64,000 nucleotides of DNA, taken from contig JAGVWP010000001.1 in assembly GCA_018304985.1 (NCBI GenBank), positions 3,913 through 67,912 of the forward strand, given 5' to 3'. Of the stretch, positions 1 through 28,303 are shown in pieces; the first letter of the stretch is position 1; the number at the start of each line of letters is the position of its first letter. The translations under genes and the position numbers were made by a program. The DNA is from Candidatus Pacearchaeota archaeon. Its GTDB lineage: Archaea; Nanobdellota; Nanobdellia; Pacearchaeales; GW2011-AR1. The notes under the pieces were generated by a model. The model saw only the letters and a list, made by a program, of their open reading frames with translations. It did no database searches and was not told the DNA's origin.

Positions 1-932
1 TAAAAAGAGCTAAAAAAGCAGAGTTAACAGGCAGGGATATAAACAAAATCTCAAAAGAAATAGTTGCAGAAGCTGGAGGCATTACAGTTATTCTTGGATT
101 TGTCCTTGGAGTTTTAATATATGTTGCTATAAAAACGTTTTATTTTAAATCTACAGATAATTTAATTGAGATATTTGCCTTAATCTGCACAATAATCCTG
201 GTTTCATTTATAGGAATGATTGATGATATATTAGGTTGGAAAATTGGGCTTGGCAAAAAAACAAGAATTTTTTTAGTTTTATTTGCATCAATTCCATTGA
301 TAGTTATTAATGCAGGAAATCCTGGAATTTCTATTCCTATTCTTGGAAAGATTAATATTGGGATAATTTACCCTCTAATATTAATTCCACTTGGCATTAT
401 AGGCGCTTCAACAACATTTAATTTCTTAGCAGGATATAATGGTCTTGAAGCAGGACAGGGCATAATTCTCTTGTCAACACTTGCAATTTTTTCTGCAGTA
501 ACTGGAACAACATGGCTTAGCTTAATTGCATTATGCATGATTGCTTCATTAGTTGCATTTTTGCATTATAATAAATATCCTGCAAAAATTTTTCCTGGAG
601 ATGTTCTGACTTATTCAGTTGGAGCGCTGATTGCAATAATGGCTATACTTGGAAATTATGAGCTTTTTGTATTATTTATTTTTCTACCTTATATTTTAGA
701 GGTTGGATTAAAGTTAAGAGGAAAGTTAAAAAAGGAATCATTTGCAATGCCTCAAAAAGACGGTTCAATAAAAAATAAATATAATAAATTTTACAGCCTT
801 GTTCATGTTGCAATAAAACTTCTGGAAAAAATCAAAAAAAGCAGAAAGGCTTACGAATGGGAAGTTGTTCTTCTTATCTATCTTTTCCAAATCATTATGG
901 TATTACTGGGTTTTTTTATATTTTTATACTAA
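1..932 (+). CDS. UDP-GlcNAc:dolichyl-phosphate GlcNAc-1-phosphate transferase family (MraY/WecA/AglH-like GT4), 5' partial
   Basis: The reading frame is open from the window start (frame 3) and stops at 932. It is polytopic, and carries the DDxxG and NxxAGxNGLEAGxG motifs typical of polyprenyl-phosphate hexose-1-P transferases. Confidence 0.7.
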   Translation, partial: KRAKKAELTGRDINKISKEIVAEAGGITVILGFVLGVLIYVAIKTFYFKSTDNLIEIFALICTIILVSFIGMIDDILGWKIGLGKKTRIFLVLFASIPLIVINAGNPGISIPILGKINIGIIYPLILIPLGIIGASTTFNFLAGYNGLEAGQGIILLSTLAIFSAVTGTTWLSLIALCMIASLVAFLHYNKYPAKIFPGDVLTYSVGALIAIMAILGNYELFVLFIFLPYILEVGLKLRGKLKKESFAMPQKDGSIKNKYNKFYSLVHVAIKLLEKIKKSRKAYEWEVVLLIYLFQIIMVLLGFFIFLY

Positions 933-980
933 TATGCTAAAAATAAACCTTTTAGAAAGGTTTCCAAACCTTAAAGAAAA

Positions 981-2243
981 ATGACAATAAAACGAATATT
1001 ATCCAATGAGTTGATTAAGGGAAGCATAATTCTTTCTATAATGTTTAATATTTTTAATTTTTTAAACTTCCTTTTTCAGTTTTTTATGGCAAGGCTTTTG
1101 GGTCCTGCAGATTATAGTGTACTTGCCGTTTTGATGGCTTTTCTTTATTTTGTGGCAATTCCTTCTGAAAGCATTCAAACGCTTATGACTAAATATTCAG
1201 CGAAATTTAACTCTCAAAGAAAAATTGGAGAGATAAATTACTTATTAAAAAGGGTTTTTTCAAAGGGATTATTAATTGCACTGGGAGTTTTTATAATTTC
1301 AATACCATTTACATATGCTTTTTCATATTTTCTTGGAATTAATTTTCTTGTTTTTTTACTAACCTCTTTAATGATTTTTTCAATACCTCTTCTTCCAGCT
1401 TCAAGGGGAGTTATGCAAGGAATAAAGAAATTTAATACTCTTGGATTCAATATGGTATCTGAAGCAACAATAAAATTAGCCATATCAATCGGCTTGGTAT
1501 TTATCGGATTTGGGGTGTATGGAGCAATGATAGGAGTAATTCTAGGAACAATTAGCGCTTTTGCCTTATCTTTAATACCATTGAAAAGAATTATCAATTC
1601 AAAAAAAGAGGCTGTTAACACTTCAAAAATATATTCCTACAGCATGCCCATATTATTTTCTCTTTTAGCTGTTTTTCTTGTTCAAAGCATTGACGTAATT
1701 CTTGCAAAAAGATTTTTTGATCCAGTTATAGCAGGGCAATACGCGGTTGTCAATCTTGCTGGAAAAATAATATTTTTTGCAACAGTTGCTATAAGCAAAA
1801 CAATGCTTCCGCTTTCATCTGAGAATTTTGAAAATAATAATGAATATAATACAAAAAAAATATTTTACAGGGCTTTAATAATGGTTGTTGGAATATGCCT
1901 TATTATCTCAGCGATTTATGCTCTTTTTCCTTCAAAAATAATCCAGTTATTATTTGGAAGCCAGTATATTGATGCTTCGCATATTCTTTTAAATATGAGT
2001 CTTGCATTTACCTTTATTTCCTTAGCCAATATTATATTAATTTACGGAATATCCATCAATAAATCAGTCAAGCTTAGCTTTCTTATTATATTTGTAGTTA
2101 TAGAAATAGGCCTATTATGGGGATTTCATCAAAATATTTATATGTATTCTCTTGCAATGATTGCTTCAAGCCTTTTGCTTTTGATTGGAAGTTTATTTGT
2201 TTTACTAAGAAAAAATAGTAATTTTACTATATCTCAGTATTAA
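981..2243 (+). CDS. Wzx-like polysaccharide biosynthesis protein / oligosaccharide flippase (MOP superfamily)
   Basis: 420 aa with about 12-14 predicted TM helices, located inside the glycosyltransferase cluster. Confidence 0.6.
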   Translation: MTIKRILSNELIKGSIILSIMFNIFNFLNFLFQFFMARLLGPADYSVLAVLMAFLYFVAIPSESIQTLMTKYSAKFNSQRKIGEINYLLKRVFSKGLLIALGVFIISIPFTYAFSYFLGINFLVFLLTSLMIFSIPLLPASRGVMQGIKKFNTLGFNMVSEATIKLAISIGLVFIGFGVYGAMIGVILGTISAFALSLIPLKRIINSKKEAVNTSKIYSYSMPILFSLLAVFLVQSIDVILAKRFFDPVIAGQYAVVNLAGKIIFFATVAISKTMLPLSSENFENNNEYNTKKIFYRALIMVVGICLIISAIYALFPSKIIQLLFGSQYIDASHILLNMSLAFTFISLANIILIYGISINKSVKLSFLIIFVVIEIGLLWGFHQNIYMYSLAMIASSLLLLIGSLFVLLRKNSNFTISQY

Positions 2244-2291
2244 CATTTTGAGTATAAAAATGTTTAAATGCCTTTTATACTGCGATAATTC

Positions 2292-3089
2292 ATGCTAAGC
2301 ATAATAATTCCTGCGCATAATGAAGAAAAAAGGATAGGACCAACACTTGAAGTGTATGGAAAATTCTTTTCTGATATAGAAAAAAAACAAGGATTAAGGC
2401 ATGAGATAATTATTGTGTTAAATGCCTGTAAAGACAATACTATTGATATTGTTAAAGAATATTCCAGGAAATACAAGAAAATAAGCTATATTGAGTTTGT
2501 TCAGGGCGGGAAAGGATTTGCGGTAACAGAGGGTTTTAAGCATTCTCTTAGAATAAATAATGAAGCTAGCAATTTAATAGGCTTTGTTGATGCAGATATG
2601 GCAACATCTCCAAGTGATTTTTATCAGCTTGCAGGCAATATTGGCAATTATGATGGAATTATAGCAAGCAGGTGGATGAAAAAATCAGTAATAGACACTC
2701 CGCAAACTTTTTTAAGAAAACTGACAAGCAGAGGATTTAATTTTATTACAAGAGTTTTATTTTTTATGCCATATAAAGACACTCAATGCGGGGCCAAGAT
2801 ATTTAAAAGAAATGTAATAGAAATTATAACTCCAAAAATAAATATAACTCAATGGGCATTTGATATAAATCTTCTCTATTTATGCAAAAGAAATAATTTC
2901 AGAATAAAAGAGCATCCAACAGTATGGAATGACAAATCTGGATCAAAAATAAATCTTGTTCAGACACCTATGAAAATGTTTCTTGGAGTTTTAAGACTAA
3001 GGATTTTATACTCTCCATTAAATTTTATAGTCAGGTTTTATAATAAAATACCTGAAGTGGCTAAGATACATCATAAATTAACTGGATGA
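2292..3089 (+). CDS. family 2 glycosyltransferase (dolichol-phosphate sugar synthase-like)
   Basis: N-terminal IIIPAHNEE motif and a DAD motif, typical GT-A/GT2. Confidence 0.75.
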   Translation: MLSIIIPAHNEEKRIGPTLEVYGKFFSDIEKKQGLRHEIIIVLNACKDNTIDIVKEYSRKYKKISYIEFVQGGKGFAVTEGFKHSLRINNEASNLIGFVDADMATSPSDFYQLAGNIGNYDGIIASRWMKKSVIDTPQTFLRKLTSRGFNFITRVLFFMPYKDTQCGAKIFKRNVIEIITPKINITQWAFDINLLYLCKRNNFRIKEHPTVWNDKSGSKINLVQTPMKMFLGVLRLRILYSPLNFIVRFYNKIPEVAKIHHKLTG

Positions 3090-3101
3090 AGAAAAATAAA
3101 A

Positions 3102-4133
3102 ATGGCAAAAGCAGATATTCTTATAGTGCATTTAAATGGGGAAGATATAATAAAACAGTGTTTAGGCTCTATTAAGAAAAATACAAAGGATGCAGATATT
3201 TATCTTCTTCTTAATAATAGCCAGGACAAGAGTGAAAATATTGTCAGAAAAAAATTTCCAAAAGTAAAAATATACAAAACAGATAAAACAATAGGATTTG
3301 CAGAATCATGCAATATTCTTGCAAAAGAAGCAAAATCCAGATATCTTATTTTTCTTAATAATGATACTATTGTTGGAAAAAACTGGCTTGATGAAATGAT
3401 CAAAACAGTGGAAAAGCATAAGAATTGTGTTGCATGCCAGCCAAAAATAAAATCTTTTTTTCATAAAGAGGATTTTGAATATGCGGGAGCTGCAGGAGGT
3501 TTTATTGATAGATATGGGTATCCATTTTGCAGGGGGAGAATCTTTAATATTATTGAAAAAGATAAAGGACAGTATAATGATGAAATGAGAATATTTTGGG
3601 GTTGTGGGGTTTGTTTACTGGTAAATAGAAATTTTTTTCTAAAATCCGGCGGATTTGATGAAGATTTTTTTATGTATGCTGAAGAACTTGATTTCTGCTG
3701 GAGAACAAATCTTTATAGTAAGGAAATATGGTTTGCTCCAAAATCAGAAATTTATCACATTGGAAGCTATACAACCAAACAATCTAATTTAAGTATTAAA
3801 AATGCAAAAAAAGACTATTTTATAACAAGAAATCATCTGCTTGCACTAATAAAAAATTATTCATTCATAGAATTAACAAAAATATTGCCTTTGAGAATAT
3901 TTTTTGAAATAGTTGCAGCAATAAGATTTGCGCCTATTAGGACGCTTTCATTTGCTAAAATATTTATTTCTATGCCTTGGATTTATATTTCTAAATTCCA
4001 TAAAAAAAGGTCTTTTATTCAGAAAAACAGAAAAGCAAGCGATAATAAATTAAAATCATTAATAAGCAAAAAAAGCATTGTTGTAGAGCATTTTTTAAAA
4101 GGAAAAGATAAATTTAACGAGATTTTCAATTAA
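3102..4133 (+). CDS. family 2 glycosyltransferase
   Basis: GT2-like N-terminal Rossmann region (LNNDTIV, DxD-like); 13 nt from the preceding gene. Confidence 0.7.
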   Translation: MAKADILIVHLNGEDIIKQCLGSIKKNTKDADIYLLLNNSQDKSENIVRKKFPKVKIYKTDKTIGFAESCNILAKEAKSRYLIFLNNDTIVGKNWLDEMIKTVEKHKNCVACQPKIKSFFHKEDFEYAGAAGGFIDRYGYPFCRGRIFNIIEKDKGQYNDEMRIFWGCGVCLLVNRNFFLKSGGFDEDFFMYAEELDFCWRTNLYSKEIWFAPKSEIYHIGSYTTKQSNLSIKNAKKDYFITRNHLLALIKNYSFIELTKILPLRIFFEIVAAIRFAPIRTLSFAKIFISMPWIYISKFHKKRSFIQKNRKASDNKLKSLISKKSIVVEHFLKGKDKFNEIFN

Positions 4134-4134: not shown

Positions 4135-5145
4135 ATGATAAAAAATAAAATAAGCATTGCAATACCTGTATTAAATGAGGGAAGAAATATTGGAAAATGC
4201 TTAAGCATAATTTATAATCAGAATTATAATAAAAAACTTATAGAAGTAATTATTGTTGATGCGGGTTCAACTGACAGAACCATGGAAATTGTAAAGAAAT
4301 TCAGTAAATATGGAGTTAAAATATTAGATAATAGCCTAAAAAAAGATTATGATACCGGAAAAATGATTGCTTTAAAGAAAGCTGCAGGAGAATTTTTCAT
4401 GTATCTTGATGCAGATATGTTTCTTGATTCAAATAACTGGATTAAAAAAATGATTGTTCCATTTTCCAATAAAAATATAAGTGCCACATTCACGAAATTC
4501 GTAGTTAAGATTAATGATAATGCATTAAACAGGTATTTATCATATGACTCGCTTCAGAGAGATCCGCTTTACAAATTCCTCACTCCTGGAATAGAATCTG
4601 TAATTGTTAAAAAAGAAGATAGTTTTTATTTATGCAAGCTTAGACTTAATAATCCCCCTCCAATAGGGCTTTGTCTTTATAGAACTGAATTATTAAAGAG
4701 ATTTTTTAAGGGGGATAGATTCCAGGATCTTGAGGTTCCCCTTAAATTACTTATTGAGGGTTATGGGTATTTTGCTTACATTCCCAATACTGGAGTGCAT
4801 CACGCTCATGTAAATAATATTAAACACTTGATTAAGAAAAGAATGAGAAATATTAATATTATGAATGATAATACAAGAGGGTATATACCTGATTATGAAA
4901 AAAGGCTTTTCAAATGGGTGGATTTTACAAAGAAATCTAGCATATTAAAGATTGGTTTATGGGTTATTTATGCAAATTTACTTATTCCCCTATTTATTTC
5001 AGGCATTTACAAAATGCTTAAATATAAGGATGGTTGTTTTATGCTTGAACCAGTAGTTGGACTGGCAGTTACTGATTCTGTGCTATGGAGTTTTATTAAA
5101 AACAGGCAAGGGTTAAAGATAATATCTGGGACAAAAAATAAATAG
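4135..5145 (+). CDS. family 2 glycosyltransferase
   Basis: ISIAIPVLNEG...VIIVDAGSTDRT motif; 1-nt spacing from the previous gene. Confidence 0.7.
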   Translation: MIKNKISIAIPVLNEGRNIGKCLSIIYNQNYNKKLIEVIIVDAGSTDRTMEIVKKFSKYGVKILDNSLKKDYDTGKMIALKKAAGEFFMYLDADMFLDSNNWIKKMIVPFSNKNISATFTKFVVKINDNALNRYLSYDSLQRDPLYKFLTPGIESVIVKKEDSFYLCKLRLNNPPPIGLCLYRTELLKRFFKGDRFQDLEVPLKLLIEGYGYFAYIPNTGVHHAHVNNIKHLIKKRMRNINIMNDNTRGYIPDYEKRLFKWVDFTKKSSILKIGLWVIYANLLIPLFISGIYKMLKYKDGCFMLEPVVGLAVTDSVLWSFIKNRQGLKIISGTKNK

Positions 5146-5157: not shown

Positions 5158-5796
5158 ATGAAATACGAATATTATGGCAGGGAGAGAATATGCAGGTCTT
5201 TTATAGACACAAAGATAAATGGAAAAACACTTAATATAGGAGCTGGAGAAATGCTTTGGATAGAAAATGATTTGTTTCCAGGAAACCCAAATTTTATCTC
5301 TTCAGATATAAATAAAAGAAACCTTGGCAAACATAATCTTGCTATAAATAAAATAGTGGCAAACGCTGAGAACCTTCCATTAAAAAACAATGAACTTTCT
5401 CAGCTGATAATTTTAGATGTTTTAGAACATATAAAAAATGATGAAAAGGTTATAAGAGAAATTCATAGAGTATTGAATAGTAATGGGAAACTTGTTATTT
5501 GCGTTCCTAATGATACTTTGCTTAGCTTCATAAATCCGATAAGATATGCTCAGCATGAAAGGCATTATACAATCAAACAAATAACCTCGTTGCTTAAGAA
5601 AAACGGTTTTGCAATTGAAAAAGTGCATGCTGGCGGAAGAATCTTGGATTTAGTGGATTTATACTCTCATTTAATCATTAAATACACAACTGGAAAAAAG
5701 ATTAAATTAAGTTTTCTTAATGGTTTGAGAGATAAAGAATATTCAAATCATATAAACAACGGCAATGAAATTACAGTTCTTGCTAGAAAAATATAA
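5158..5796 (+). CDS. class I SAM-dependent methyltransferase
   Basis: GxGxG-like motif I and the LDVLEHI motif (Methyltransf_11-like). Confidence 0.65.
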   Translation: MKYEYYGRERICRSFIDTKINGKTLNIGAGEMLWIENDLFPGNPNFISSDINKRNLGKHNLAINKIVANAENLPLKNNELSQLIILDVLEHIKNDEKVIREIHRVLNSNGKLVICVPNDTLLSFINPIRYAQHERHYTIKQITSLLKKNGFAIEKVHAGGRILDLVDLYSHLIIKYTTGKKIKLSFLNGLRDKEYSNHINNGNEITVLARKI

Positions 5797-7684: not shown

Positions 7685-9238
7685 ATGAAAGTTTTATATG
7701 CTCATAAACATCATCCTATAGAACCTTTAGGAGTAGCTTATATATCAAGTTCTATAGCAAGAAGTGGGCATGAATCTAAATTAATGCTTACTCCAAGAAA
7801 TATAGATAAAGCGGTTGAGGAAGTATCAAGAGTTATCGATCAGGAGCATCCAGATATTTTTGCTCAAAGCATAATATTTGGAAGCCACAAATATGCTATT
7901 GACTTAAGTAGAAAAGTTAAAGAAAGATATCCAAAAATTATTAGTTTTCTTGGAGGGCCTGCTCCAACATTTACGCCTGGATTAATTTCAAGGGGATTTG
8001 ATGCTATATGTCGTTATGAAGGAGAAAATCCATTTCTAACTTTCTGTAATAATGTTGAATCTGGAGCAGATGTTGGAAACATCCCAAATATATGGGTTAT
8101 GGAAAATCCAGATTTATATAATACAGAAGTAAGAAAAGTAAAAAAAGTCTTAGATAAAAATGATCTAAATTACAAAAAAGAAAGTGGATATGATCCTCAA
8201 AGAAAAATGTTTGTAAATGATACTGGAGTACTTCTTGAAGATGAAACCTTAGAAAATATTCCATTTCCAGATAGAGAATTATTATATGAACATGAAATGT
8301 ATAGAGATAGTGATATAAAACATTATATGTCTACACGAGGTTGTGCATTTAAATGCTCTTATTGCCACGTACATGTTCAAAATGCTGATAATAAAGGAAA
8401 GGGCAGTCCTGTAAGAAGGAGACAGAATGAATCTGTTGCAGAAGAAGTATTAGCAATTAAGAAAAAATTTGGATCTAAAAATGATTATTTTCAGGATGAT
8501 ATTCATGGAGCTTCTTATAAATTAGAGTTTGCTAAAGAGTATGCAGAAGTTATGGCAGGAGTTTCTCAAAATGGGCACTGCCATGTTAGATTTGATCTTA
8601 TTGCCAAGCATCCAGATATCGCTAAATATCTTGCAAAAGCAGGAATTACTGGAGTTCATGTTGCAATAGAATCTGGGGACGATTATATTAGGAATCATGT
8701 TCATAGAAGAGGAATGACTATAGAAGAAATTCTTAAAGGAGCAAAATATTTACATGATAATGGAATAAAGATGATGACCCAAAATATTTTAGGAGCTGCC
8801 GGAGAAACAAAAGAACAAATGTTGAAAACTTTAGAATTAAACATTGCAGTTAGACCCACCTTTGCTTCTGCATCAATCTTCCAACCGTATCCTGGAACTA
8901 GTGCTTTAGAATATGCAAGAGATCATGGAGTTTTACCTTCAAATAGTGAGGATGAATTAATAGACCTTTTTGGAATGGAAACATTTTATAATAAAACTAT
9001 ACTAATTCAAGATCCTCAACATAAAAGATGGTTAGAACTTTTTCAGAAGTTTTTTGCAATTGCTGTCGCAAATCCTCAAATCTATCAATCTGGAGTTTTA
9101 GATAAAATAATTGCCACTTATCCTAAAGGAGAAGAAGCAAATAAAGAGTTGGAGCATATGTATAGATTACATAGAGCTGAAGCTGATGAAAAACTTTATG
9201 GTGTAAAACTTAAAGAGATAGTTATGGAAGAGAATTAA
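7685..9238 (+). CDS. B12-binding domain radical SAM protein
   Basis: The N-terminal region resembles a cobalamin-binding Rossmann domain. A CAFKCSYC radical-SAM cysteine motif follows. The start is moved to the ATG at 7685 (MKVLYAHK) to remove the overlap with the convergent gene. Confidence 0.75.
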   Translation: MKVLYAHKHHPIEPLGVAYISSSIARSGHESKLMLTPRNIDKAVEEVSRVIDQEHPDIFAQSIIFGSHKYAIDLSRKVKERYPKIISFLGGPAPTFTPGLISRGFDAICRYEGENPFLTFCNNVESGADVGNIPNIWVMENPDLYNTEVRKVKKVLDKNDLNYKKESGYDPQRKMFVNDTGVLLEDETLENIPFPDRELLYEHEMYRDSDIKHYMSTRGCAFKCSYCHVHVQNADNKGKGSPVRRRQNESVAEEVLAIKKKFGSKNDYFQDDIHGASYKLEFAKEYAEVMAGVSQNGHCHVRFDLIAKHPDIAKYLAKAGITGVHVAIESGDDYIRNHVHRRGMTIEEILKGAKYLHDNGIKMMTQNILGAAGETKEQMLKTLELNIAVRPTFASASIFQPYPGTSALEYARDHGVLPSNSEDELIDLFGMETFYNKTILIQDPQHKRWLELFQKFFAIAVANPQIYQSGVLDKIIATYPKGEEANKELEHMYRLHRAEADEKLYGVKLKEIVMEEN

Positions 9239-19090: not shown

Positions 19091-19852
19091 ATGGCAGAAA
19101 AAGCTTTTGATATGGATTATGCAAAGTATTATGATATTTTTAATCAGGGAAAAAATTACGAGCAAGAAGCAGAATTTTTAGACCGGGTATTTAAGAAATA
19201 TTCAAAAAATCAAATTAAAACAATTCTTAATCTTGGATGCGGGACAGGAATGCATGATATAGAATTAAGCAAAGAAGGATATTCAGTTATGGGATTGGAT
19301 CTTTCTGCAGATATGATAGAAATTGCAAAATCAAGAAATATTCCTAATACTGAATTTGTTGTTGGAAATATGTCTAATTTTTCTCTTAATAATAAATTTG
19401 GCGCATGCATAAGCATGTTTGCGACATTTGGATACCAGCTTGAGAATAAAGATATAAAATCTTCATTTGAATGTATTAAAAATCATCTGCTTCCTGGAGG
19501 ATTAGTAATTATTGAAGTATGGAATGGACTTGGAGTTTTAAGAGAATTGCCAAGCAGCAGAAAAAAAGAAATAATCCATGGAGATATTTTAATAAAAAGA
19601 CAGAGTTTCCCAGTTTTTGATGCATTTAATCATAAAGTTGATATTAATTTTAAAGTTGATATATTCAAAAATAATGAATCTGTTGAAAGTTATGAAGAAA
19701 TGCATAAAATGAGATTTTTCTTCCCGCAAGAGTTCATAAAATATGTAGAAGATGCGGGATTTGAGGTTCTTGAAATATGTGATACTTTCAAGCTTGGAAG
19801 CAAAGTTAATGAGAACAACTGGAATATGGTTTTGATCGCTAGGTTAAAATGA
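19091..19852 (+). CDS. class I SAM-dependent methyltransferase
   Basis: ILNLGCGTGMH motif I and DLSADMIE. Confidence 0.65.
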   Translation: MAEKAFDMDYAKYYDIFNQGKNYEQEAEFLDRVFKKYSKNQIKTILNLGCGTGMHDIELSKEGYSVMGLDLSADMIEIAKSRNIPNTEFVVGNMSNFSLNNKFGACISMFATFGYQLENKDIKSSFECIKNHLLPGGLVIIEVWNGLGVLRELPSSRKKEIIHGDILIKRQSFPVFDAFNHKVDINFKVDIFKNNESVESYEEMHKMRFFFPQEFIKYVEDAGFEVLEICDTFKLGSKVNENNWNMVLIARLK

Positions 19853-19906: not shown

Positions 19907-21034
19907 ATGAAAAAAGCTCTAATAACAGGAATTACTGGACAGGATGGAAGCTATCTTGCAGAATTCCTACTTGAAAAGGGATATGAAGTTCATGGGATAA
20001 TAAGGAGAAGTAGCACTATAAACAGAGAAAGAATAGATCACTTAACAAAGCCAGAAATCCCTGCAGGACATACTGGAAAAGAAAAGGGAAGCTTTATTCT
20101 TCATTATGGAGATTTAACTGATTCAAGCTCTGTTGAAAAAATAATAAAAGAAGTTATGCCTGATGAAGTTTATAACCTTGGAGCACAGAGTCATGTAAGA
20201 GTTAGTTTTGACATACCTGAAAATACAACAAATGTTGTTGCTTTGGGAACATTAAGAATTTTAGAAGCTATAAAAAATGTATGTCCAAAGGCCAGATTTT
20301 ACCAGGCTTCTTCATCTGAAATGTTTGGGCAAGTAGCTGAGGTACCTCAAAAAGAAACAACTCCTTTTCATCCAAGAAGCCCTTATGGATGCGCTAAAGT
20401 GTATGCATATCATATAACAAGAAATTTCAGAGAGTCTTATGGAATTTTTGCATGTAATGGAATCTTGTTTAATCATGAGTCTGAAAGAAGAGGAGAGAAT
20501 TTTGTAACAAGAAAAATAACTCAATCATTATCGAGAATTAAAATGGGGCTTCAAACAGAAGTTTATCTTGGTAATTTAGATGCTGAAAGAGATTGGGGGC
20601 ATGCTAAGGATTATGTTGAAGCAATGTGGCTGATTTTGCAGCAAAATGAACCTGAAGATTATGTTATTGGTACTGGAGAAAAATATAGTGTAAGACAATT
20701 TCTGGAAGAGTCTGCAAAAACTCTTGGCATGAATATAAAATCTAATGGGAAAAGAGGAGTTGAAGAAGAATATTTAAATGAAAATGGGCAAGCAATTGTT
20801 AAAGTTCATCCAAGGTATTTCAGACCAGCTGAAGTTGATCTACTTTTATCAGACCCAACTAAAGCAAGAACTAAATTAGGGTGGATTCCAAAAATAACAT
20901 TTAAAGAACTAGTAAGGCTAATGTGTGATCATGATTTGAAACTTGCTGAAAAAGAATATTATCTTAAAAATAAAGTCAAGGTTGTTGATGATATTATAAA
21001 TATATTAAAAGATCAGAATAATAAATTTACTTAA
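19907..21034 (+). CDS. gmd: GDP-mannose 4,6-dehydratase
   Basis: [36 protein letters not shown] and downstream GMD-specific blocks ([24 protein letters not shown]). Confidence 0.9.
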
Positions 21035-21042: not shown

Positions 21043-22101
21043 ATGGAATATAAATATCCGGTTTCAAAGCCTTCTTTGAAAGGCAAAGAATTAGAGTATG
21101 TAACAAAAGCAATAAATGATGGATGGATTTCTTCTCAAGGACCTTATGTTCAAGAATTTGAAAAAGCCTTTGCAGAATTTAATGGAGTTAAACATGGAGT
21201 TGCTTGTTCTTCTGGAACAGCTGCGCTTACAATTGCTTTACGGGCATTAAATATAGGTCCTGGTGATGAAGTAATTGTGCCCGAATTTACAATGATTGCA
21301 AGTGCATGGGCAGTTACTTATACTGGAGCAAAACCTGTATTTGTTGATTGCAAAGATGATTTAACAATTGACGCAGATTTAATAGAAGAAAAAATAACTT
21401 CTAGAACACGAGCTATAATGCCAGTCCATATTTACGGAAGGCAGTGCGATATGGAAAAAATTATGGATATAGCTTATAATTATAACTTAAAAGTTATTGA
21501 AGATTCTGCAGAAGCCCATGGTGTGAAACCTACTGGAGATATGGCTTGTTTTTCGCTTTTTGCAAATAAAATAATATCTGCTGGCGAGGGGGGAGTGTGT
21601 GTTACAAATGACGACCATTTAGCGAAGCAGATGGTTCATTTAAGAGCAATGGCGTTTACTCCAGAACATAATTTTATCCATAAAAAAATAGCATATAATT
21701 TCAGGATGACTAATCTCCAGGCAGGAGTTGCTCTTGCGCAACTTGAAAGAATTGAGGAAATGCTTGCAAAAAGAAAAAAAATTGAAGATATTTATGATGA
21801 AAAACTAAAAAATATTAAACAAATAAAAGTAATGCCAAAAAGAAATGTTTTATGGATGTATGATCTTCTTGCAGAAAATAAACACGCCTTGCAAAAACAT
21901 CTCGAGGGATGTGGTATAGAAACAAGGCAGTTTTTCAAGCCAATGAGCCAGCAACCTATGTACTATGATCCTAATTGGAAAACTCTTAATGCGGCTAAAT
22001 TTGGGCACAGTGGCATTTATCTTCCAACATATGCTGACTTAACAGAAGAAGACCAGGAATATATTGTGAGCAAAATAAAAGAGTTCTATGATAAAATTTG
22101 A
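21043..22101 (+). CDS. DegT/DnrJ/EryC1/StrS-family PLP-dependent sugar aminotransferase (GDP-perosamine synthase-like)
   Basis: GDEVIVPEFTMIASAWAV, SLFANKIIS (the lysine region) and YNFRMTNLQAGVALAQLERI motifs. Confidence 0.8.
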   Translation: MEYKYPVSKPSLKGKELEYVTKAINDGWISSQGPYVQEFEKAFAEFNGVKHGVACSSGTAALTIALRALNIGPGDEVIVPEFTMIASAWAVTYTGAKPVFVDCKDDLTIDADLIEEKITSRTRAIMPVHIYGRQCDMEKIMDIAYNYNLKVIEDSAEAHGVKPTGDMACFSLFANKIISAGEGGVCVTNDDHLAKQMVHLRAMAFTPEHNFIHKKIAYNFRMTNLQAGVALAQLERIEEMLAKRKKIEDIYDEKLKNIKQIKVMPKRNVLWMYDLLAENKHALQKHLEGCGIETRQFFKPMSQQPMYYDPNWKTLNAAKFGHSGIYLPTYADLTEEDQEYIVSKIKEFYDKI

Positions 22102-22124: not shown

Positions 22125-22919
22125 ATGAAAGATAAATTAAAAAAGCAAAGGTATTCTATATGCCTAACAACTTATTTTGATAAAAATTTCAGTGAAATGG
22201 GTGAAATAAGCTTGAAATCCATAAGAGAATATGCTGATAAGTTTAATATTGATGTAAAATTGCTGAACAATATAAATTCTAACAGACCTCCTGCTTGGAA
22301 TAAGATATTAATTGTAAAAAAACTTCTAGAAAATTATGATTTTGTTTTTTGGATTGATGCAGATGCATTATTTGTTAGATTTAATGAAGATATAAGAAAT
22401 GAAATAGAAAATGGAAAAGATTTCTATCTTGTAAAACATTATATAAAAGAAAGATGGGTTCCAAACAGCGGAAGTTTTTTAATCAGAAATAGTGATTGGG
22501 GCAAGAAATTCTTAGATGATGTATGGAATAAAAAAGAGTATATTTATCATAATTACTGGGAGAATGCTGCGATAATTGATCTGCTTGGATATAAAGAGGT
22601 AATGTACTTTAATAAATATAAAATGCTTGCTAACAAAATATTCTATAAATTAAAAATAAAAAAACAAGCTGTAAAAGCCTTTAACCTGTCTAAGAAAATA
22701 TTATTTTTTAATAAATCAAGAAAAGATGATAATGCAATTGTAAAAAATGTTAAATATCCTGAAAACCCTGAAATTATTAAAAAAGTCAAATGGATTGACT
22801 TAAAATGGAATAATCTTCCTGGCGTGGCAGAGACAAAAAATCCTATTATAAATCACTATCCTGCCAAACCTTATGAAGAAAGACTTAAAAAAATGCGTAT
22901 AGATTCAATTAAAATATAA
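22125..22919 (+). CDS. putative GT-A nucleotide-diphospho-sugar transferase (GT34/GMA12-like)
   Basis: PPAWNKILIVKKLLENYDFVFWIDADALF resembles the GMA12/MNN10 galactosyl/xylosyl-transferase block. Confidence 0.4.
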   Translation: MKDKLKKQRYSICLTTYFDKNFSEMGEISLKSIREYADKFNIDVKLLNNINSNRPPAWNKILIVKKLLENYDFVFWIDADALFVRFNEDIRNEIENGKDFYLVKHYIKERWVPNSGSFLIRNSDWGKKFLDDVWNKKEYIYHNYWENAAIIDLLGYKEVMYFNKYKMLANKIFYKLKIKKQAVKAFNLSKKILFFNKSRKDDNAIVKNVKYPENPEIIKKVKWIDLKWNNLPGVAETKNPIINHYPAKPYEERLKKMRIDSIKI

Positions 22920-22921: not shown

Positions 22922-23470
22922 ATGGAAAAATTAAATTTAGGATCTGGAATGGATTATCGGCAAGGATTTGTCAATGTAGATATTGACAAAAATGCGAAAC
23001 CAGATTTTGCCATAGATATTGAAAAGGGATTAAAAAAATTCAAAGACAATACTTTTGATTATGTATATTCTAGGCATGTTTTAGAGCATCTTGATCCAAG
23101 AAAATTAAAATTTGTAATGGATGAAATCTCCAGAGTATCTAAAAATGGAGCAATAGTTGATGTTTATGTTCCTCATTTTAGCTGTGGAAAAACCTATCAA
23201 TCGTATGATCATTTAAACAGCATGAGTTTTTTCACTTTTTCTGTTAAGGATTTTAAAACCTTCAAAATTTTAAAAAGACATTTGAGTTTTATGAGAGATG
23301 AATTGCCTTATACTGGCAATCCCAAACTAAATAATTTAGCTAAAATAATAAATCCTATTTTTTCATTTATACCTAATAAAATCCCGTTTATTTATGAAAG
23401 ATTCTTTTGCTGGATTTACCCTATGGAAGAAATTCATTTTAGATTTAAAATAATAAAAGATCAAATTTAA
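22922..23470 (+). CDS. class I SAM-dependent methyltransferase
   Basis: LGSG...YSRHVLEHLDP; 2 nt from the preceding gene. Confidence 0.6.
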   Translation: MEKLNLGSGMDYRQGFVNVDIDKNAKPDFAIDIEKGLKKFKDNTFDYVYSRHVLEHLDPRKLKFVMDEISRVSKNGAIVDVYVPHFSCGKTYQSYDHLNSMSFFTFSVKDFKTFKILKRHLSFMRDELPYTGNPKLNNLAKIINPIFSFIPNKIPFIYERFFCWIYPMEEIHFRFKIIKDQI

Positions 23471-23657: not shown

Positions 23658-25220
23658 TTATATCTTAACCTTTGTTTTAATAAAATAATCTTTTATTTTT
23701 TCTATAGCCAACTTTAGTATAAAGTAATCAGTGCTGTCCAGACCTTTTAGCATCATTAAAGCTAATATATAAACAGTTGCTCCTGAAGAAACTAAAAGAA
23801 TTCCGTTGAATAAATTTATATCGCCAAATAAGACCTTTAGCACATATATTGATATTACCATAATAATTGAGGCAGATAATGGCTTTATAATAATGCCCCA
23901 TTTTATTCTCACTCCTAGTCTTTTTCTTGCTAAAACAGTCATGCCTATGCAATAAACAAGCCAGGTAAATGTTGTTGCTATTGCCGCCCCTGTAATTGCC
24001 AAAACATCTGAATATTTTGATAAGAAATAAACAAGACCTGCATTAAGTATTATATCTATTATTATGATTAATAAAATTAAATTAAAGTAATCTTTTGGCT
24101 TTTCTCTTGATGAAAAAAGCTCGGTTATAAGGCTAACCTGTGCTGCCAAAAATATAAACATAGCTAAAAAGTAAAGAGGGAATGCTCCTTCAATATATTC
24201 GTATCCGTAAATTAATACAATAAAGTAACTTCCTAGAGAAGCCAATCCAAAAGCTATTGGAAAAGACAACATCATTGAATATCTAAGAGATTTATTAAAA
24301 ATATACTCAAGTTTTTGTTTTTTAGCTTCAATAAATACTGGAAGCAATACCTGGCCAAATCCCAGTAACCCCGAGATGCTTGACATTAAAACAAATGCTG
24401 CTTGGTAAATTCCAATGTATTTTGCATCCTCAAGAATAACTCCAAGAGTTATTGTATCCACATTTCCAATAATAACTGTTGCTATAGAAGCTATTGTAAG
24501 GTAATATGCAAATTTAAGTACTCTGCTTTTTTCTTTTAAAGATAATTCACCTCTTAACTTAAAAATTCCCGGCTGAACCTTATTAATATTATAAATACTT
24601 ATTGCTATAGCTAAAAATGAAGAGGCAATTAGTATTAAAAACGCCTGGTAAGCTGTTGGATTTTTAATTAAAAATACCAGAAATAAAAGAGATAAAGAAA
24701 TTTTTAACAATTGAAAAATCAATTCTTTTACAGCAATATATTTAACTTTTTTTACACTAAAGAAAAAAGAAGCGAGAAACTGGTCTAATGAAAGAAAGAA
24801 CATGTAAAATATCACTAAAAAAAGAGGAAAAACCATTTCAGGCTTTTTAAAAATGTATACTGATAAAGGATATAAGAATATGCCAAGCATTAATGAAAGG
24901 AAGGCTAATATAGATAACTTAATTTTCAAAGTGTATGTAAAATAATCTTTTGCTTTTTTTTCATTTCCTTTCTTTAGTGAATTAGAAAAATAGTAAATAA
25001 GTGATTTATCTATTCCCACTTGTGATAACATAAAAAATATAAGGCCTACTGAAACTGCCAAATTAAATATACCAAATCCTTCTGGAAGAAGATAACGGGC
25101 AATTATTACTGTAAAAATCAATCCTCCAATCCTTTGAATTGCTGCAGCTATGCTGCTCCATATAGATCCGCTAAGAACCTGAGAGGTTGTACTTTGTTTG
25201 CTTTTTTCTATGTTTTTCAT
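23658..25220 (-). CDS. Wzx-like polysaccharide flippase (MOP superfamily)
   Basis: 520 aa with about 14 TM helices in the glycan cluster. Confidence 0.65.
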   Translation of the reverse strand: MKNIEKSKQSTTSQVLSGSIWSSIAAAIQRIGGLIFTVIIARYLLPEGFGIFNLAVSVGLIFFMLSQVGIDKSLIYYFSNSLKKGNEKKAKDYFTYTLKIKLSILAFLSLMLGIFLYPLSVYIFKKPEMVFPLFLVIFYMFFLSLDQFLASFFFSVKKVKYIAVKELIFQLLKISLSLLFLVFLIKNPTAYQAFLILIASSFLAIAISIYNINKVQPGIFKLRGELSLKEKSRVLKFAYYLTIASIATVIIGNVDTITLGVILEDAKYIGIYQAAFVLMSSISGLLGFGQVLLPVFIEAKKQKLEYIFNKSLRYSMMLSFPIAFGLASLGSYFIVLIYGYEYIEGAFPLYFLAMFIFLAAQVSLITELFSSREKPKDYFNLILLIIIIDIILNAGLVYFLSKYSDVLAITGAAIATTFTWLVYCIGMTVLARKRLGVRIKWGIIIKPLSASIIMVISIYVLKVLFGDINLFNGILLVSSGATVYILALMMLKGLDSTDYFILKLAIEKIKDYFIKTKVKI

Positions 25221-25311: not shown

Positions 25312-27207
25312 ATGGAAGATGAAAAAAATAAAATAAGTGTTGTTGATAAATCTATAAATAAAGGAGTAAGCCTTCTTTTTTCCAATAGTAATTCTATGAC
25401 TTATCTTGGTTTAATATTAATATTCGGCTTTGTGTTAAGGATTATTGCTGCAATTAATTTAAATGTTGTTGCAGATGATATGGTCCATACAATTCATGCT
25501 ATTGGTTTTTTTAATTCTGGAAAACTTGTTGATTACAGCCAATCTGCATCATTATGGTTTTATATAACTGATATTTTTTACAGGGCTTTTGGAGTGAGTC
25601 AGTTATCCTCAAGAATGGCTGCATTATTATTTGGGACTTTTTCAATAATTGCCATGTATCTTCTTGGCAAAGAATTATTTAATGAGAAAATTGGCTTGCT
25701 AAGCGCATTTATCTTAGCTGTGTCTCCATATCACATAAAAAATACTGTTGGAGAGATGGATGTTACAGTAATGTTTTTTATTCTTCTTGGATCAATCTTT
25801 TTTATACGTTCTTTAAAAATCAATAAAAAAATTAATTTTATTCTAAGCGGAATTTTTATAGGTCTTGCAGTAATGATCAAGGTTTATGCTCTCTTATTCC
25901 TGCCTTCTTTAATTCTCTTTTATATATACAAGAAATATAAAAAAGATAAAAAGATTATGGATAAAAATTCTTTAAAAATAATTATATTATTTTTATTTGT
26001 AATATTTATATTTACAATACCTACACTGACACATAACTATCTTCTTTACAAAGATAAGGGAATAACTGACTTTATATTTGCTAACACATTAGGCATAATA
26101 AATAATCAAACTGAACAGCTTTATTCTTTTGATCTTGGATGGAAAGCACAACATGACTGGATGGGATTTATATTTGGGGGAAATAAAAGCTATCAATACC
26201 CATTGGCAATAGAAGGTTTAAATTTTATCTTATTTGGCGATCCTTTAATTTTTATTTTTGGAATACTTGGTTTGGTCTATGGATTGTATAAAAAAGATGA
26301 AAGTTCCATATTCTTGTTTTTAATGATATTATTTATATTTCCGTATTTGGCAACAATTATACTTCTTCCCAAGCATTACACATTTATGCCTATTTTGCTA
26401 ACTCCTCTTGCGGCCAGTTTTATAATAAATATTTGTGAAAATTATAACCGAAAGAAAAGAAATCAAGAAAATAAAAATAGTCTTAGACTAAGGTATCTGG
26501 CAATTGCAATTCTTATTTTTAGTGTAATCTACCTTGGTTTTGCCCCCGAAAGCACAATGCAGCATGTTTATGGAAAAAGCTCAACAGTGCAATTTATAGA
26601 TTTTAAAAACAATAATATTAATAATGCAGATTTAATTGTTTTAGACTCAAGGATTTATAGAGGAAGAATTAACTGGATGGCTTACGGCAAGCCATATCTG
26701 GAAGGAATTGATTTTATAGAAATTGTGAATAATCAGGATCAGATTCCTGGAAACTATATTCCTATAAAAGTCTATTATGTAGAATGTGTTGTTGATGATT
26801 GTGGTTGGGGAACTGTAAAAGATCAGCCAGAATTTAATCAGTCTATGGAGCAGTTAACTGAATTTTTTAGAACAAATGGCAGTCTTATTAAAAGCATTGA
26901 AGAGCCTTATAAAAAAATGCCTTATTACCCAATTATCTATGAAAATAATAGAGTTAATGACATAAACATATATTATAAAATAATCTATCTAAAACCTCAA
27001 ACACTGCTTTTAGCTGTTCAGCCAAAAAACTGGTTTCATTATAATATAGGCCACTTTCCTAAAGGAGGAGAATTTGATGATTATTCTGTTCGCAGCCTTT
27101 TTGACAGAATTTTGGATAAATTTGCACACTTGATTATATATATTTCAATCATACTAGCATTTTTAAGCGTGATATTTTTGATTTATTTGTTATTCAAAAA
27201 AAAATGA
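25312..27207 (+). CDS. GT-C fold glycosyltransferase (GT39/ArnT-like)
   Basis: 631 aa polytopic protein with an ADDM acidic motif in the first loop. Confidence 0.55.
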   Translation: MEDEKNKISVVDKSINKGVSLLFSNSNSMTYLGLILIFGFVLRIIAAINLNVVADDMVHTIHAIGFFNSGKLVDYSQSASLWFYITDIFYRAFGVSQLSSRMAALLFGTFSIIAMYLLGKELFNEKIGLLSAFILAVSPYHIKNTVGEMDVTVMFFILLGSIFFIRSLKINKKINFILSGIFIGLAVMIKVYALLFLPSLILFYIYKKYKKDKKIMDKNSLKIIILFLFVIFIFTIPTLTHNYLLYKDKGITDFIFANTLGIINNQTEQLYSFDLGWKAQHDWMGFIFGGNKSYQYPLAIEGLNFILFGDPLIFIFGILGLVYGLYKKDESSIFLFLMILFIFPYLATIILLPKHYTFMPILLTPLAASFIINICENYNRKKRNQENKNSLRLRYLAIAILIFSVIYLGFAPESTMQHVYGKSSTVQFIDFKNNNINNADLIVLDSRIYRGRINWMAYGKPYLEGIDFIEIVNNQDQIPGNYIPIKVYYVECVVDDCGWGTVKDQPEFNQSMEQLTEFFRTNGSLIKSIEEPYKKMPYYPIIYENNRVNDINIYYKIIYLKPQTLLLAVQPKNWFHYNIGHFPKGGEFDDYSVRSLFDRILDKFAHLIIYISIILAFLSVIFLIYLLFKKK

Positions 27208-27917
27208 AAGTTCTGTCTGTGATTATTCCAGCATATAATGAAGAAGAAACTATATCCAATTTATTGGAAAGGGTTTTAGCTGCAAAAATTAGTTTGAAAA
27301 AAGAGATAATAATCATTAATGATGGATCAACAGATAATACTAAAACAGAAGCAAAGAAAACTCTTGATAAATTAATAAAAATATACAAAAATGATTCTTT
27401 ATTGATAATTAGCAAGAAAAATGGTGGCAAGGGCTCTGCAGTCAAGCTTGGCTTTGAAAAAGCAAGTGGAGATATAATTATTATTCAGGATGCGGATTTA
27501 GAGTATAATCCTGATGAATATCAAACCCTTATAAATCCAATAATAGATAATCAATATAAAGTAGTATATGGTTCCAGAAGGCTTAATAAGAATAATAAAG
27601 GGTATTCTAACCTTTCATTTTTTATCGGAGGCATAATTGTAACAAAATTAACCAATTTACTATTTAATTCCAAATTAACAGATGAACCTACATGCTATAA
27701 AGTTTTTGAAGCAAATTTAATAAAAAATATCCGAATTATTGGAAATGGTTTTGAGTGGGAGCCGGAAGTAACTGCAAAAATATTGAAAAAGAAAATAAAA
27801 ATACACGAGATTCCAATTTCATATAATCCTAGGAAGAAAAATGAAGGAAAGAAGATAAACTGGAAAGATGGTATGAAAGCTATATGGACTTTATTTTACT
27901 GGAGATTTAAAAATTAA
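27204..27917 (+). CDS. family 2 glycosyltransferase (dolichyl-phosphate sugar synthase-like)
   Basis: VIIPAYNEE and IIQDADLEY motifs; 4-nt overlap with the upstream gene. Confidence 0.75.
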   Translation: MKVLSVIIPAYNEEETISNLLERVLAAKISLKKEIIIINDGSTDNTKTEAKKTLDKLIKIYKNDSLLIISKKNGGKGSAVKLGFEKASGDIIIIQDADLEYNPDEYQTLINPIIDNQYKVVYGSRRLNKNNKGYSNLSFFIGGIIVTKLTNLLFNSKLTDEPTCYKVFEANLIKNIRIIGNGFEWEPEVTAKILKKKIKIHEIPISYNPRKKNEGKKINWKDGMKAIWTLFYWRFKN

Positions 27918-27994
27918 TAATATATAATTTTATATACCTTAAAAATTTTCTGTAATATTAAAAAAGATGAAATGAAATATAAATTGGTTGTTAG

Positions 27995-28303
27995 ATGCAT
28001 AGAAACCCGCTGGAGGTTTTTATAATGACTGACTGGATAAATAATGCTATAGATCATAATGGAATCCCCTTAATTGTAAAAAGCCTGCATGTAGGAGATT
28101 TTATTGAGGTTATTTATGCTAATTCGGATGAAAGACTTATTGGAGGTTATGTAACAACTCTGACTTCAAATTCTCCCAAATCTGACAAAGGAACAAATAA
28201 AGTTTATTTTCTGGGAATAAGCGCAGAACACCCGAATAATAATGAGGATGAAAAAATGCTTTGGGTTACCAAAATAAAATTATTCAGAGTGGTACATAAA
28301 TAA
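27995..28303 (+). CDS. hypothetical protein
   Basis: ORF only. Confidence 0.3.
   Translation: MHRNPLEVFIMTDWINNAIDHNGIPLIVKSLHVGDFIEVIYANSDERLIGGYVTTLTSNSPKSDKGTNKVYFLGISAEHPNNNEDEKMLWVTKIKLFRVVHK

Follow-up and report, generated by a model that had tools for sequence, protein, structure and literature searches.

Within a 64,000-nucleotide stretch of DNA from the DPANN archaeon Candidatus Pacearchaeota (assembly GCA_018304985.1, contig JAGVWP010000001.1; the whole stretch is hereafter called the window), a long run of glycan-biosynthesis genes was found that probably represents the main protein N-glycosylation (agl) cluster of this organism, a reading to which we assign a probability of about 0.7. 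Pfam and NCBIfam scans of the open reading frames (ORFs) in the window revealed that 24 of 24 consecutive ORFs at positions 1-27917 encode glycan-pathway domains, and 24 such genes in a single run are far above chance expectation. The dense cluster of about 24 consecutive genes claimed in a preliminary description of this DNA therefore stands, as none of its ORFs was reassigned elsewhere. The whole locus is an aglB-anchored cluster of ~30.8 kb and 25 genes that runs from aglB, outside the window on the left, to a GT2 glycosyltransferase gene ending at 27917; the window cuts off the left end of the cluster, and ~2.8 kb of further cluster DNA lies to the left. This flank was read on metagenome contigs: on one of 156,780 bp, position 9021 of locus L005 corresponds to window base 1, with 100% identity over 300 bases, and the gene order of the cluster is unchanged on contigs from several samples. 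The fusion protein PK-Sat encoded in the window (described below) is identical to NCBI entry MBS3091798.1 from Candidatus Pacearchaeota archaeon, a lineage placed in the kingdom Nanobdellati, the DPANN archaea, and the same protein is encoded on the 156,780-bp contig. A methanogen of the Methanobrevibacter or Methanosphaera type, considered as the source because of the 29% GC, was rejected on the strength of these protein identities and of the DPAGT1-like PF00953 protein described next.

The oligosaccharyltransferase and the initiating transferase of the proposed pathway are encoded side by side. On the contig identical to the window, a gene for AglB/STT3 (911 aa, PF02516; L005 6176-8911) ends ~110 bp to the left of window base 1, immediately upstream of the AglH-like gene with which the window begins. 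The AglB protein displays 15 hydrophobic segments by hydropathy, the motif FGHWWDYGYW and a DIGK (DK-type) motif, and it aligns to the structures of eukaryotic STT3 and Pyrococcus AglB, including the AglB C-terminal domains. In NCBI it is entered as MBS3091784.1, "hypothetical protein J4466_00015", an accession number 14 below that of PK-Sat, which agrees with the gene order. The earlier statement that no AglB/STT3 oligosaccharyltransferase (WWDYG) is present holds for the window but not for the locus. The neighbouring gene (1-932, plus strand; ORF open from base 3) encodes an AglH/Alg7-type polyprenyl-phosphate GlcNAc-1-P transferase (PF00953 at 3e-29), and the full gene, which starts 70 bases before window base 1, encodes 333 aa. 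The closest solved relative of this protein is human DPAGT1 at 79 bits, versus 30 bits for MraY. An identity as MraY was also considered for the PF00953 protein and was rejected, with the NCBIfam pseudomurein MraY model scoring 48 bits against a cutoff of 450; the protein is instead DPAGT1-like. An STT3/AglB protein with WWDYG, an initiator clustered with aglB, and flippases together with further glycosyltransferases (GTs) and tailoring enzymes were all found at this locus. Because AglB with its WWDYG motif adjoins the AglH-like gene, the type of the locus, which had been left between an N-glycan, an O-glycan and an S-layer glycan pathway, resolves mainly to AglB-dependent N-glycosylation.

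The domain scans also bore out most of the remaining inventory in the preliminary description, including an AglH/WecA-type initiator, two Wzx flippases, two GT-C enzymes and a GT9-GT2 fusion. The first Wzx/MOP flippase candidate (Wzx1; 981-2243, plus strand) matches Polysacc_synt_3, Polysacc_synt and MatE and has 12 hydrophobic segments by hydropathy; a copy with 40% identity adjoins AglB-AglH in locus L017. The second candidate (Wzx2; 23658-25220, minus strand) matches PF01943 at 4e-23 and has 14 such segments. Three GT2 genes follow Wzx1 on the plus strand: GT2a (2292-3089; PF00535 2.5e-17), which is soluble and has copies at 47-50% identity in L009, L019 and L031, and GT2b (3102-4133; PF00535, PF10111) and GT2c (4135-5145; PF00535 2.3e-21), each with one C-terminal hydrophobic segment by hydropathy. 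A fourth free-standing GT2 of 237 aa (27204-27917, plus strand; PF00535 4e-34) is DPMS/ArnC/GtrB-like and is a candidate polyprenyl-phosphate monosaccharide synthase; its best matches in the Protein Data Bank (PDB) are Pyrococcus furiosus DPMS, ArnC and GtrB, and it is without transmembrane helices. With the GT2 half of the fusion protein (9250-11154, minus strand), which joins a GT9 domain (heptosyltransferase family, GT-B fold; PF01075) to a GT2 domain (PF00535/PF13641) and has orthologues at 62% identity in L022 and 53% in L030, the earlier count of five or more GT2 enzymes is reached. Three GT4 enzymes had been counted, of which only two carry PF00534, namely GT4-type (GT-B) a (12670-13818, minus strand; 5e-31, with PF13439) and GT4-type b (17901-19061, plus strand; 1.6e-19). 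The third was probably a GT34-like nucleotide-diphospho-sugar transferase with a GT-A fold (22125-22919, plus strand; PF05637 5e-12), which has a weak match to xyloglucan xylosyltransferases. This enzyme was missed as such in the preliminary description, as was an HldC/RfaE-domain-II-like nucleotidyltransferase (11249-11746, plus strand; PF01467) that scores 166 bits with TIGR02199 against a cutoff of 181.5 and has 5X9Q as its closest solved relative.

Sugar supply is represented by two adjacent genes on the plus strand. Gmd, a GDP-mannose 4,6-dehydratase (19907-21034), is recognised at equivalog level by TIGR01472 (534.5 bits, cutoff 415). The DegT-family aminotransferase beside it (21043-22101; PF01041 8e-106) falls below every NCBIfam equivalog cutoff (301 against 420 for the LegC-family model); its best PDB matches are the GDP-perosamine synthases 3BN1, 3DR4 and 3DR7 at 292-295 bits, the next match scoring 219. 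The aminotransferase is therefore predicted to be most like GDP-perosamine synthase (Per), and this assignment is supported by its adjacency to gmd.

Tailoring enzymes are spread through the cluster, and the four SAM (S-adenosylmethionine) methyltransferases, B12-radical SAM enzyme, NodB, Gmd with DegT aminotransferase and sulfotransferase listed earlier were all confirmed by their domains. The methyltransferases lie on the plus strand at 5158-5796 (MT1; Methyltransf_11/23), 11750-12421 (MT2; Methyltransf_11/23/12), 19091-19852 (MT3; Methyltransf_25/23/11) and 22922-23470 (the fourth; Methyltransf_11). The B12-binding radical SAM enzyme (rSAM; 7685-9238, plus strand; PF02310 + PF04055) has 517 aa in the metagenome gene call, and an alternative TTG start at 7511 would overlap the GT-C1 gene; it lies below all NCBIfam equivalog cutoffs, the best being HpnJ at 88 bits against 578. 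The NodB/CE4 polysaccharide de-N-acetylase (13839-14606, minus strand; PF01522 3.5e-24) is without a signal or transmembrane segment by hydropathy. The carbohydrate-type sulfotransferase (ST; 16928-17842, plus strand; PF00685 4e-17, PF13469) is predicted to be cytoplasmic; it contains a 5'-phosphosulfate-binding-like motif, GRSGTIW, and a 3'-phosphate-binding-like motif, RDPVERAFS, as these motifs are generally defined for the sulfotransferase family, and its closest solved relatives are 3RNL and heparan-sulfate 3-O-sulfotransferases. Hydropathy detected no hydrophobic segment in ST, NodB, the methyltransferases or PK-Sat. Since ST, the methyltransferases, NodB and rSAM have neither signal nor transmembrane segments, they would act on the glycan at its lipid-linked stage.

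The two GT-C enzymes both belong to the PMT_2 family. GT-C1 (5986-7602, minus strand) has 11 hydrophobic segments and matches PF13231 at 7e-16; PF02366 is also matched by GT-C1 at 27.8 bits (cutoff 22.7), the PMT_2 match being much stronger, and is not matched by GT-C2. GT-C2 (25312-27207, plus strand; PF13231 2.4e-16), of which GT-C1 is a distant paralogue at 25% identity, belongs to a conserved Pacearchaeota family of ~620 aa with 42-52% identity. The start of the DPMS-like GT2 gene overlaps the stop of GT-C2 (translational coupling), and the same GT-C and GT2 pair is found in L009. Invariant in the family are D55/D56 (DD) in the first external loop and ECxxDDCGWG at residues 491-500 in an external alpha/beta domain. 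A C-terminal transmembrane helix follows this domain, and neither the helix nor ECxxDDCGWG was matched to any described GT-C family. A search of the GT-C2 sequence against solved structures returned nothing at E<0.01, and a structure was modelled with AlphaFold (AF2) from 39 sequences (pLDDT 87, pTM 0.88). Foldseek matched this model to AglB/STT3/PglB at E 3e-8 to 2e-6 with template-modelling (TM) scores of 0.39-0.47, to ArnT with TM scores of 0.51/0.58, to ALG9/12 with 0.50-0.51 and to PMT1/2/4 with 0.28-0.42; GT-C2 is without the WWDYG motif. On the model, GT-C2 is a GT-C enzyme of the oligosaccharyltransferase (OST)/ArnT/PMT class that appears at least as close to OST and ArnT as to PMT. 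The label "GT39-like" given to the two enzymes in the preliminary description finds no specific support, as Pfam found no MIR domain in GT-C1 or GT-C2 and the GT-C2 model matches OST, ArnT and ALG9-12 at least as well as PMT; the NCBI label "glycosyltransferase family 39 protein" on GT-C2 homologues is a family-name annotation only.

From these genes we infer an order of steps, a set of sugars and an acceptor. The AglH/DPAGT1-like enzyme would place GlcNAc-1-P onto dolichyl phosphate on the cytoplasmic side of the membrane, and up to nine transferase domains, among them those of GT2a-c, the two GT4-type enzymes, the GT34-like enzyme and the GT9-GT2 fusion, would extend the lipid-linked glycan. 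Gmd and the perosamine-synthase-like aminotransferase would supply GDP-4-amino-4,6-dideoxymannose, with perosamine as one of the added sugars and its amine free or methylated, there being no N-acyltransferase in the cluster, and the HldC-like enzyme would activate a further sugar-phosphate or alditol-phosphate. The lipid-linked glycan would then be methylated by the four methyltransferases, de-N-acetylated by NodB, possibly C-modified by the B12-radical SAM enzyme and sulfated by ST before a Wzx-type protein flips it and AglB transfers it to asparagine. By analogy, Wzx2, the DPMS-like GT2 and the GT-C enzymes may form an AglR/AglD/AglS-like or ArnC/ArnT-like branch in which a sugar from a dolichyl-monophosphate is added outside the membrane. 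In Haloferax volcanii, the corresponding AglR/AglD/AglS branch uses a DPMS-like GT2 to load dolichyl phosphate, a second flippase-like protein to move the sugar and a multi-spanning transferase to add the last sugar outside the cell (PMC3871713).

The gene recorded earlier as "Sat" does encode an ATP sulfurylase, but this is the C-terminal half of a 736-aa fusion of pyruvate kinase (PK), PUA_2 and Sat domains (14659-16869, minus strand; PF00224 3e-62, PF14306 5e-48, PF01747 2e-74). In this protein, PK-Sat, the pyruvate-kinase A+B barrel occupies residues 3-313, PUA_2 355-505 and the ATP sulfurylase 513-725. The PK half aligns to solved pyruvate kinases over the entire A+B barrel (PF00224 211 bits), and TIGR01064, with 244 bits, falls short of its cutoff of 306 and covers positions 3-327 of 476 only. 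No PF02887 match to the C-terminal alpha/beta (effector/tetramer) domain of pyruvate kinase was found in PK-Sat, and PUA_2-Sat stands in its place. Residues of the PK site that bind phosphoenolpyruvate (PEP), metal and ADP (R32, N34, S36, H37, D60, T61, R67, K149, K208, E210, D234 and T266) are kept in 117-119 of 119 fusion proteins, with the family-specific changes DTKG to DTEG and PEIR to SQ(I/V)R. The sulfurylase half scores 438 bits with NF003166 (cutoff 387), its HxxH and GRDHTG-type residues are invariant, and its motifs are likewise conserved among the 119 proteins. The copy in the window has no APS kinase domain (APS, adenosine 5'-phosphosulfate), and no NCBIfam model spans the PK-Sat architecture. 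A literature search found no paper describing a fusion of pyruvate kinase and ATP sulfurylase, and the source databases name these proteins either "pyruvate kinase" or "sulfate adenylyltransferase".

The fusion is widespread. The best 120 database matches to PK-Sat all have the PK-PUA_2-Sat architecture, and 22 of these 120 add a C-terminal APS kinase. A scan with one genome per species identified PK-Sat fusions at 436 loci, in Pacearchaeota, Woesearchaeota, Nanoarchaeia and Micrarchaeota, in many lineages of the candidate phyla radiation (CPR), and in Chloroflexota, Acidobacteriota, NC10, Omnitrophota, Elusimicrobia and others. With a query placed across the PK/PUA junction, 107 clusters (50% identity) were retrieved at E<=1e-30 among 1.84 billion representatives. 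The spread over DPANN, CPR and other bacteria suggests inter-domain transfer. Neighbouring genes were counted within a 10-kb radius at 80 species-level loci that were retrieved: APS kinase (CysC) was fused to PK-Sat or located within this distance at 53 loci, a Pfam-validated sulfotransferase at 46 (Pfam confirmed 52 of the 54 sulfotransferase-like ORFs near PK-Sat) and AglB at five, among them L017, where the AglB-AglH-Wzx1 orthologues lie 4 kb from PK-Sat. At two loci, fusions of CysC with a sulfotransferase stand beside PK-Sat (L049 5628-7025 and L063 12185-13642). This genomic context argues that the fused PK-Sat genes, at least, serve glycan sulfation.

In vitro synthesis of 3'-phosphoadenosine 5'-phosphosulfate (PAPS) requires ATP regeneration by PK and PEP, because ADP locks APS kinase into a dead-end complex (PMC9885120). 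We infer a matching role for the PK half: while the ATP-sulfurylase half would make APS, the PK half would most likely regenerate ATP from PEP and remove the ADP that inhibits APS kinase. With odds somewhat better than even, PK-Sat represents an undescribed class of PEP-driven PAPS synthase, composed of a PK barrel minus its regulatory C-terminal domain and an ATP sulfurylase, with an APS kinase added in about a fifth of cases, in which ATP is regenerated and inhibitory ADP removed on the spot; such a class would be shared across domains and located in surface-glycan loci beside sulfotransferases.

The surroundings of the cluster were compared with those of related genomes. The GC content is 0.27-0.33 inside the cluster and 0.26-0.34 outside, ~29% over the window, with no step at either end. 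Glycan clusters of relatives occupy the same site, next to secDF and a block of RpoN/ABC/CARDB/FtsX/DUF655-S13-S4 genes; this was observed in L010, L011 and L018 (Pacearchaeota/Nanoarchaeia) and L012 (Nanoarchaeia GCA_028718305.1), and their gene content is mostly different. Gene content was further compared at 84 loci around PK-Sat homologues, with 40% identity as the minimum threshold for a counterpart. PK-Sat shows 44-73% identity across these loci; AglB-AglH-Wzx1 is common only to L017, NodB-GT4a-GT9/GT2-HldC to L022, L027 and L030, ST to L020 and L030, and GT-C2 with the DPMS-like GT2 to L009 and L019. For MT1, MT2, MT3, GT2b, GT2c, GT4b, the GT34-like enzyme, rSAM and Per, no counterpart at this threshold was found near PK-Sat in the 84 loci. 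These data demonstrate that the locus is a mosaic, variable glycan cluster at a conserved chromosomal site and not a compositionally foreign island; variable agl clusters are known in Haloferax (PMC5867893).

Several points weigh against the assignment of the whole cluster to one N-glycosylation pathway. The adjacency of AglB was read on metagenome contigs identical to the window, outside the window itself. Nine strand changes within the cluster and the presence of two flippases leave room for more than one pathway, no perosamine N-acyltransferase was found in the cluster, and heptose-phosphate genes to accompany the HldC-like and GT9 genes were not found. A composite locus is less probable, although it is the likeliest of the alternatives: AglB, AglH, Wzx1, GT2a-c and MT1 would make the N-glycan, and the rest (GT-C1, rSAM, GT9-GT2, HldC, GT4a, NodB, PK-Sat, ST, Gmd/Per, Wzx2, GT-C2 and the DPMS-like GT2) would assemble another lipid-linked glycan, which is passed by the GT-C enzymes to serine or threonine, to a lipid or to another surface polymer. 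The pairs of Wzx and GT-C genes, the strand switches and the differing distribution of the sub-modules among relatives are in keeping with such a division, and the PMT_2 family includes both protein O-mannosyltransferases and the lipid A glycosyltransferase ArnT. In Haloferax, however, a second flippase-like protein and a GT-C-like enzyme act in the same N-glycan pathway, five other species have PK-Sat and AglB within 10 kb of each other, and no MIR domains or further PMT hallmarks were found in the GT-C enzymes, with the GT-C2 fold resembling OST or ArnT no less than PMT. The term "island" in the preliminary description, understood as foreign DNA, raises a different alternative, that a cluster such as a bacterial O-antigen-like one was recently acquired and is not a resident archaeal locus. 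An IS630-type (DDE_3) transposase lies to the left of aglB (L005 4543-5541, with housekeeping genes beyond), RNA genes (a 5S rRNA and three tRNAs) stand at the right end, the gene content is near-unique among the 84 compared loci, and PK-Sat, Gmd, Per and GT9 have bacterial relatives, PK-Sat occurring also in CPR and other bacteria; however, the absence of a GC step, the glycan clusters of relatives at the same secDF/S13-operon site, the archaeal/eukaryotic type of the core (AglB and the DPAGT1-like AglH) and the identical gene order on contigs from several samples make this origin improbable.

Enzymes for an amino-deoxy-sugar-containing, methylated and sulfated glycan, as proposed earlier, are encoded, but sulfation is the weakest of the predicted modifications, because no APS kinase (PF01583) was found by tblastn in the window and 9 kb to its left, 73 kb in total. 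Also counting against a complete pathway, among the best 120 of 7977 CysC homologues none was attributable to this genome or to its relatives on 857-kb and 867-kb contigs. One CysC candidate, P0261, was set aside because it belongs to a different, co-occurring member of the Pacearchaeota with its own PK-Sat. If the genome has an APS kinase, it must be encoded outside the cluster. A separate CysC-less clade of PK-Sat with altered function was rejected as well, since a neighbour-joining tree intermixes the proteins for which CysC is fused, adjacent or not found. This points to a small gene that was repeatedly fused, split off and moved, and not to new chemistry. That the sulfation branch is inactive or incomplete, with PK-Sat and ST kept while no PAPS is made and the glycan stays unsulfated, or that PAPS or APS-kinase activity is obtained from the host, is an unlikely explanation, although it would fit the CysC searches, the absence of CysC within 10 kb of PK-Sat in the close relatives L017, L019-L024, L027 and L030, and the host dependence that is common in DPANN archaea. 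PK-Sat and ST are both intact, the catalytic residues of PK-Sat are invariant, the intermixed CysC states on the PK-Sat tree are better explained by a small gene having moved than by lost function, and the CysC list covered the best 120 of 7977 matches and the genome only partly. It is rather improbable that, in genomes like this, where no APS kinase is seen, the sulfotransferase works without PAPS made by CysC. Lower still do we rate a role of PK-Sat in energy or sulfur metabolism, be it glycolytic ATP, assimilatory or dissimilatory sulfate activation, or ATP from APS and pyrophosphate. Both halves of the protein look catalytically competent from their sequences, and a DPANN survey scores sat and pyk genes, "sulfate adenylyltransferase" and "pyruvate kinase", as sulfur-cycle and glycolytic or energy functions (PMC8091004); however, PK-Sat is found inside glycan clusters with the sulfotransferase and APS kinase neighbours counted above, including the CysC-sulfotransferase fusions that adjoin it in L049 and L063, and no domain of an APS/PAPS reductase or a sulfite reductase was detected among the scanned ORFs (the 24 cluster ORFs and most larger flank ORFs, with several of at least 100 aa and all shorter flank ORFs left out).

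Beyond the cluster, the right boundary is formed by two small ORFs that we do not assign to the pathway (27995-28303, plus strand, and 28385-28684, minus strand), which are also called as genes on metagenome contigs and for which a Pfam scan gave no family match. They are followed by a 5S rRNA (28839-28951, minus strand; Rfam), tRNA-Leu (29036-29119; ARAGORN and Rfam), a third tRNA (29169-29247, plus strand; Rfam 53.9 bits) and tRNA-Gly (29296-29367; ARAGORN and Rfam). The third tRNA was seen by Rfam only and missed by ARAGORN, and it may carry an intron or have an atypical structure. With the three tRNA genes beside it, the 5S rRNA is solitary in the interval from the glycan cluster to secF, and no 16S or 23S rRNA is present in the window. 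The conserved flank begins with secF (29412-30476, plus strand; PF02355) and secD (30558-32105, plus strand), the same neighbours that flank the glycan clusters of relatives, and the remainder of the window holds archaeal housekeeping genes, including SecF/SecD, S13, S4, RpoD, Orc1/Cdc6 and the PolD small subunit. At the far left of L005 (1-127), a fragment of a ParE toxin was observed. About 5 kb to the right of the cluster, a free-standing ORF (32952-33896, minus strand) has weak LAGLIDADG_3 and helix-turn-helix (HTH) matches; in Haloferax, free-standing homing endonucleases have been reported beside variable glycosylation clusters (PMC5867893). The genes between secDF and the ribosomal-protein genes (34913-43952) encode two MacB/FtsX permeases, an ABC ATPase and a surface-type, CARDB/NPCBM-associated protein (39448-40353), which may be a target of glycosylation; in L010, the ABC, CARDB and one MacB/FtsX gene occupy a matching position. 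A tyrosine recombinase (54019-54846, minus strand; Phage_integrase with a SAM-like N domain), with family-less ORFs nearby (54992-59312), may be a chromosomal XerA-type resolvase or the integrase of an integrated element. The segment 59312-63264 contains a candidate replication origin: upstream of the genes for Orc1/Cdc6 (60255-61577) and, next in order, the PolD small subunit (61648-63264), the DNA is AT-rich, with inverted repeats at 59912-59986 and direct repeats of 24 nt at 60006-60216. No turning point of the cumulative GC skew was seen there.

If the genome measures ~0.86 Mb, as in relatives on single contigs of 857-867 kb, the cluster would take up ~3-4% of it. The near-complete turnover of content between related species at a fixed site is the pattern of serotype-like surface variation under selection by viruses or host contact in haloarchaea and bacteria. 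The kind of locus is itself ordinary, an aglB-anchored variable N-glycosylation cluster, found here in a DPANN archaeon, and its newest element is the PK-Sat(-CysC) fusion family. The naming of PK-Sat can mislead metabolic reconstructions, and the OST of the locus is publicly labelled "hypothetical protein". If PK-Sat is indeed a PEP-driven PAPS synthase, many "pyruvate kinase" and "sat" calls in reconstructions of small genomes would reflect glycan sulfation and not glycolytic ATP or the sulfur cycle. Furthermore, PAPS supply has been engineered with ATP-regeneration cascades, of which a fusion that joins PK, ATP sulfurylase and APS kinase is the natural counterpart; such a fusion would be a candidate for one-enzyme PAPS production.

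Known systems resemble the locus in different parts. Like the Sat-CysC PAPS synthases (human PAPSS1/2 and the bacterial or Aquifex-type enzymes), PK-Sat fuses consecutive steps of sulfate activation, and some of its relatives carry PF01747 and PF01583 in one chain; unlike them, it has an N-terminal PK A+B barrel without the PK C-terminal domain, and the copy in the window is without CysC. Bacterial Wzx-dependent O-antigen loci with gmd-per share the variable content at a fixed site, Wzx, the many GT2 and GT4 enzymes and Gmd with Per, and the nearest solved relatives of the aminotransferase are the GDP-perosamine synthases of Caulobacter; in contrast to these loci, a Wzy polymerase, a chain-length regulator and an O-antigen ligase were not recognised here, and the neighbour is the archaeal OST AglB. 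In the ArnC/ArnT and GtrB/GtrA/GtrC systems, as here, a DPMS/ArnC/GtrB-like GT2 is coupled to a PMT_2 GT-C enzyme, to which the TM scores of GT-C2 with ArnT correspond; however, the GT2 of the cluster lacks transmembrane helices, GT-C2 has its own external domain with ECxxDDCGWG, and its acceptor is probably a protein-linked glycan and not lipid A or O-antigen.

The closest likenesses are archaeal. The N-glycan of Halobacterium salinarum is sulfated and transiently methylated on its dolichol carrier (PMC4335974), and the cytoplasmic sulfotransferase without transmembrane segments and the methyltransferases described here would fit modification at the same dolichol stage. The sulfotransferase of H. 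salinarum was left unidentified in that study, whereas in the present locus a candidate is encoded beside the sulfate-activating enzyme; the sugars also differ, with hexuronic acids in H. salinarum and perosamine and GlcNAc predicted here. The agl cluster of Haloferax volcanii likewise groups glycosyltransferases, a methyltransferase and a flippase-like MOP protein around aglB and includes a dolichyl-phosphate side branch, its genes comprising AglB with AglJ/G/I/E, the methyltransferase AglP and AglD/AglR/AglS. Its initiator is the GT2 enzyme AglJ acting on dolichyl phosphate, whereas the DPAGT1/AglH-type GlcNAc-1-P transferase found here implies a start on dolichyl pyrophosphate. Compared with that cluster, the one described here is about twice as large and adds Gmd/Per, NodB, the B12-radical SAM enzyme, GT9-GT2, the HldC-like enzyme, PK-Sat and a sulfotransferase.

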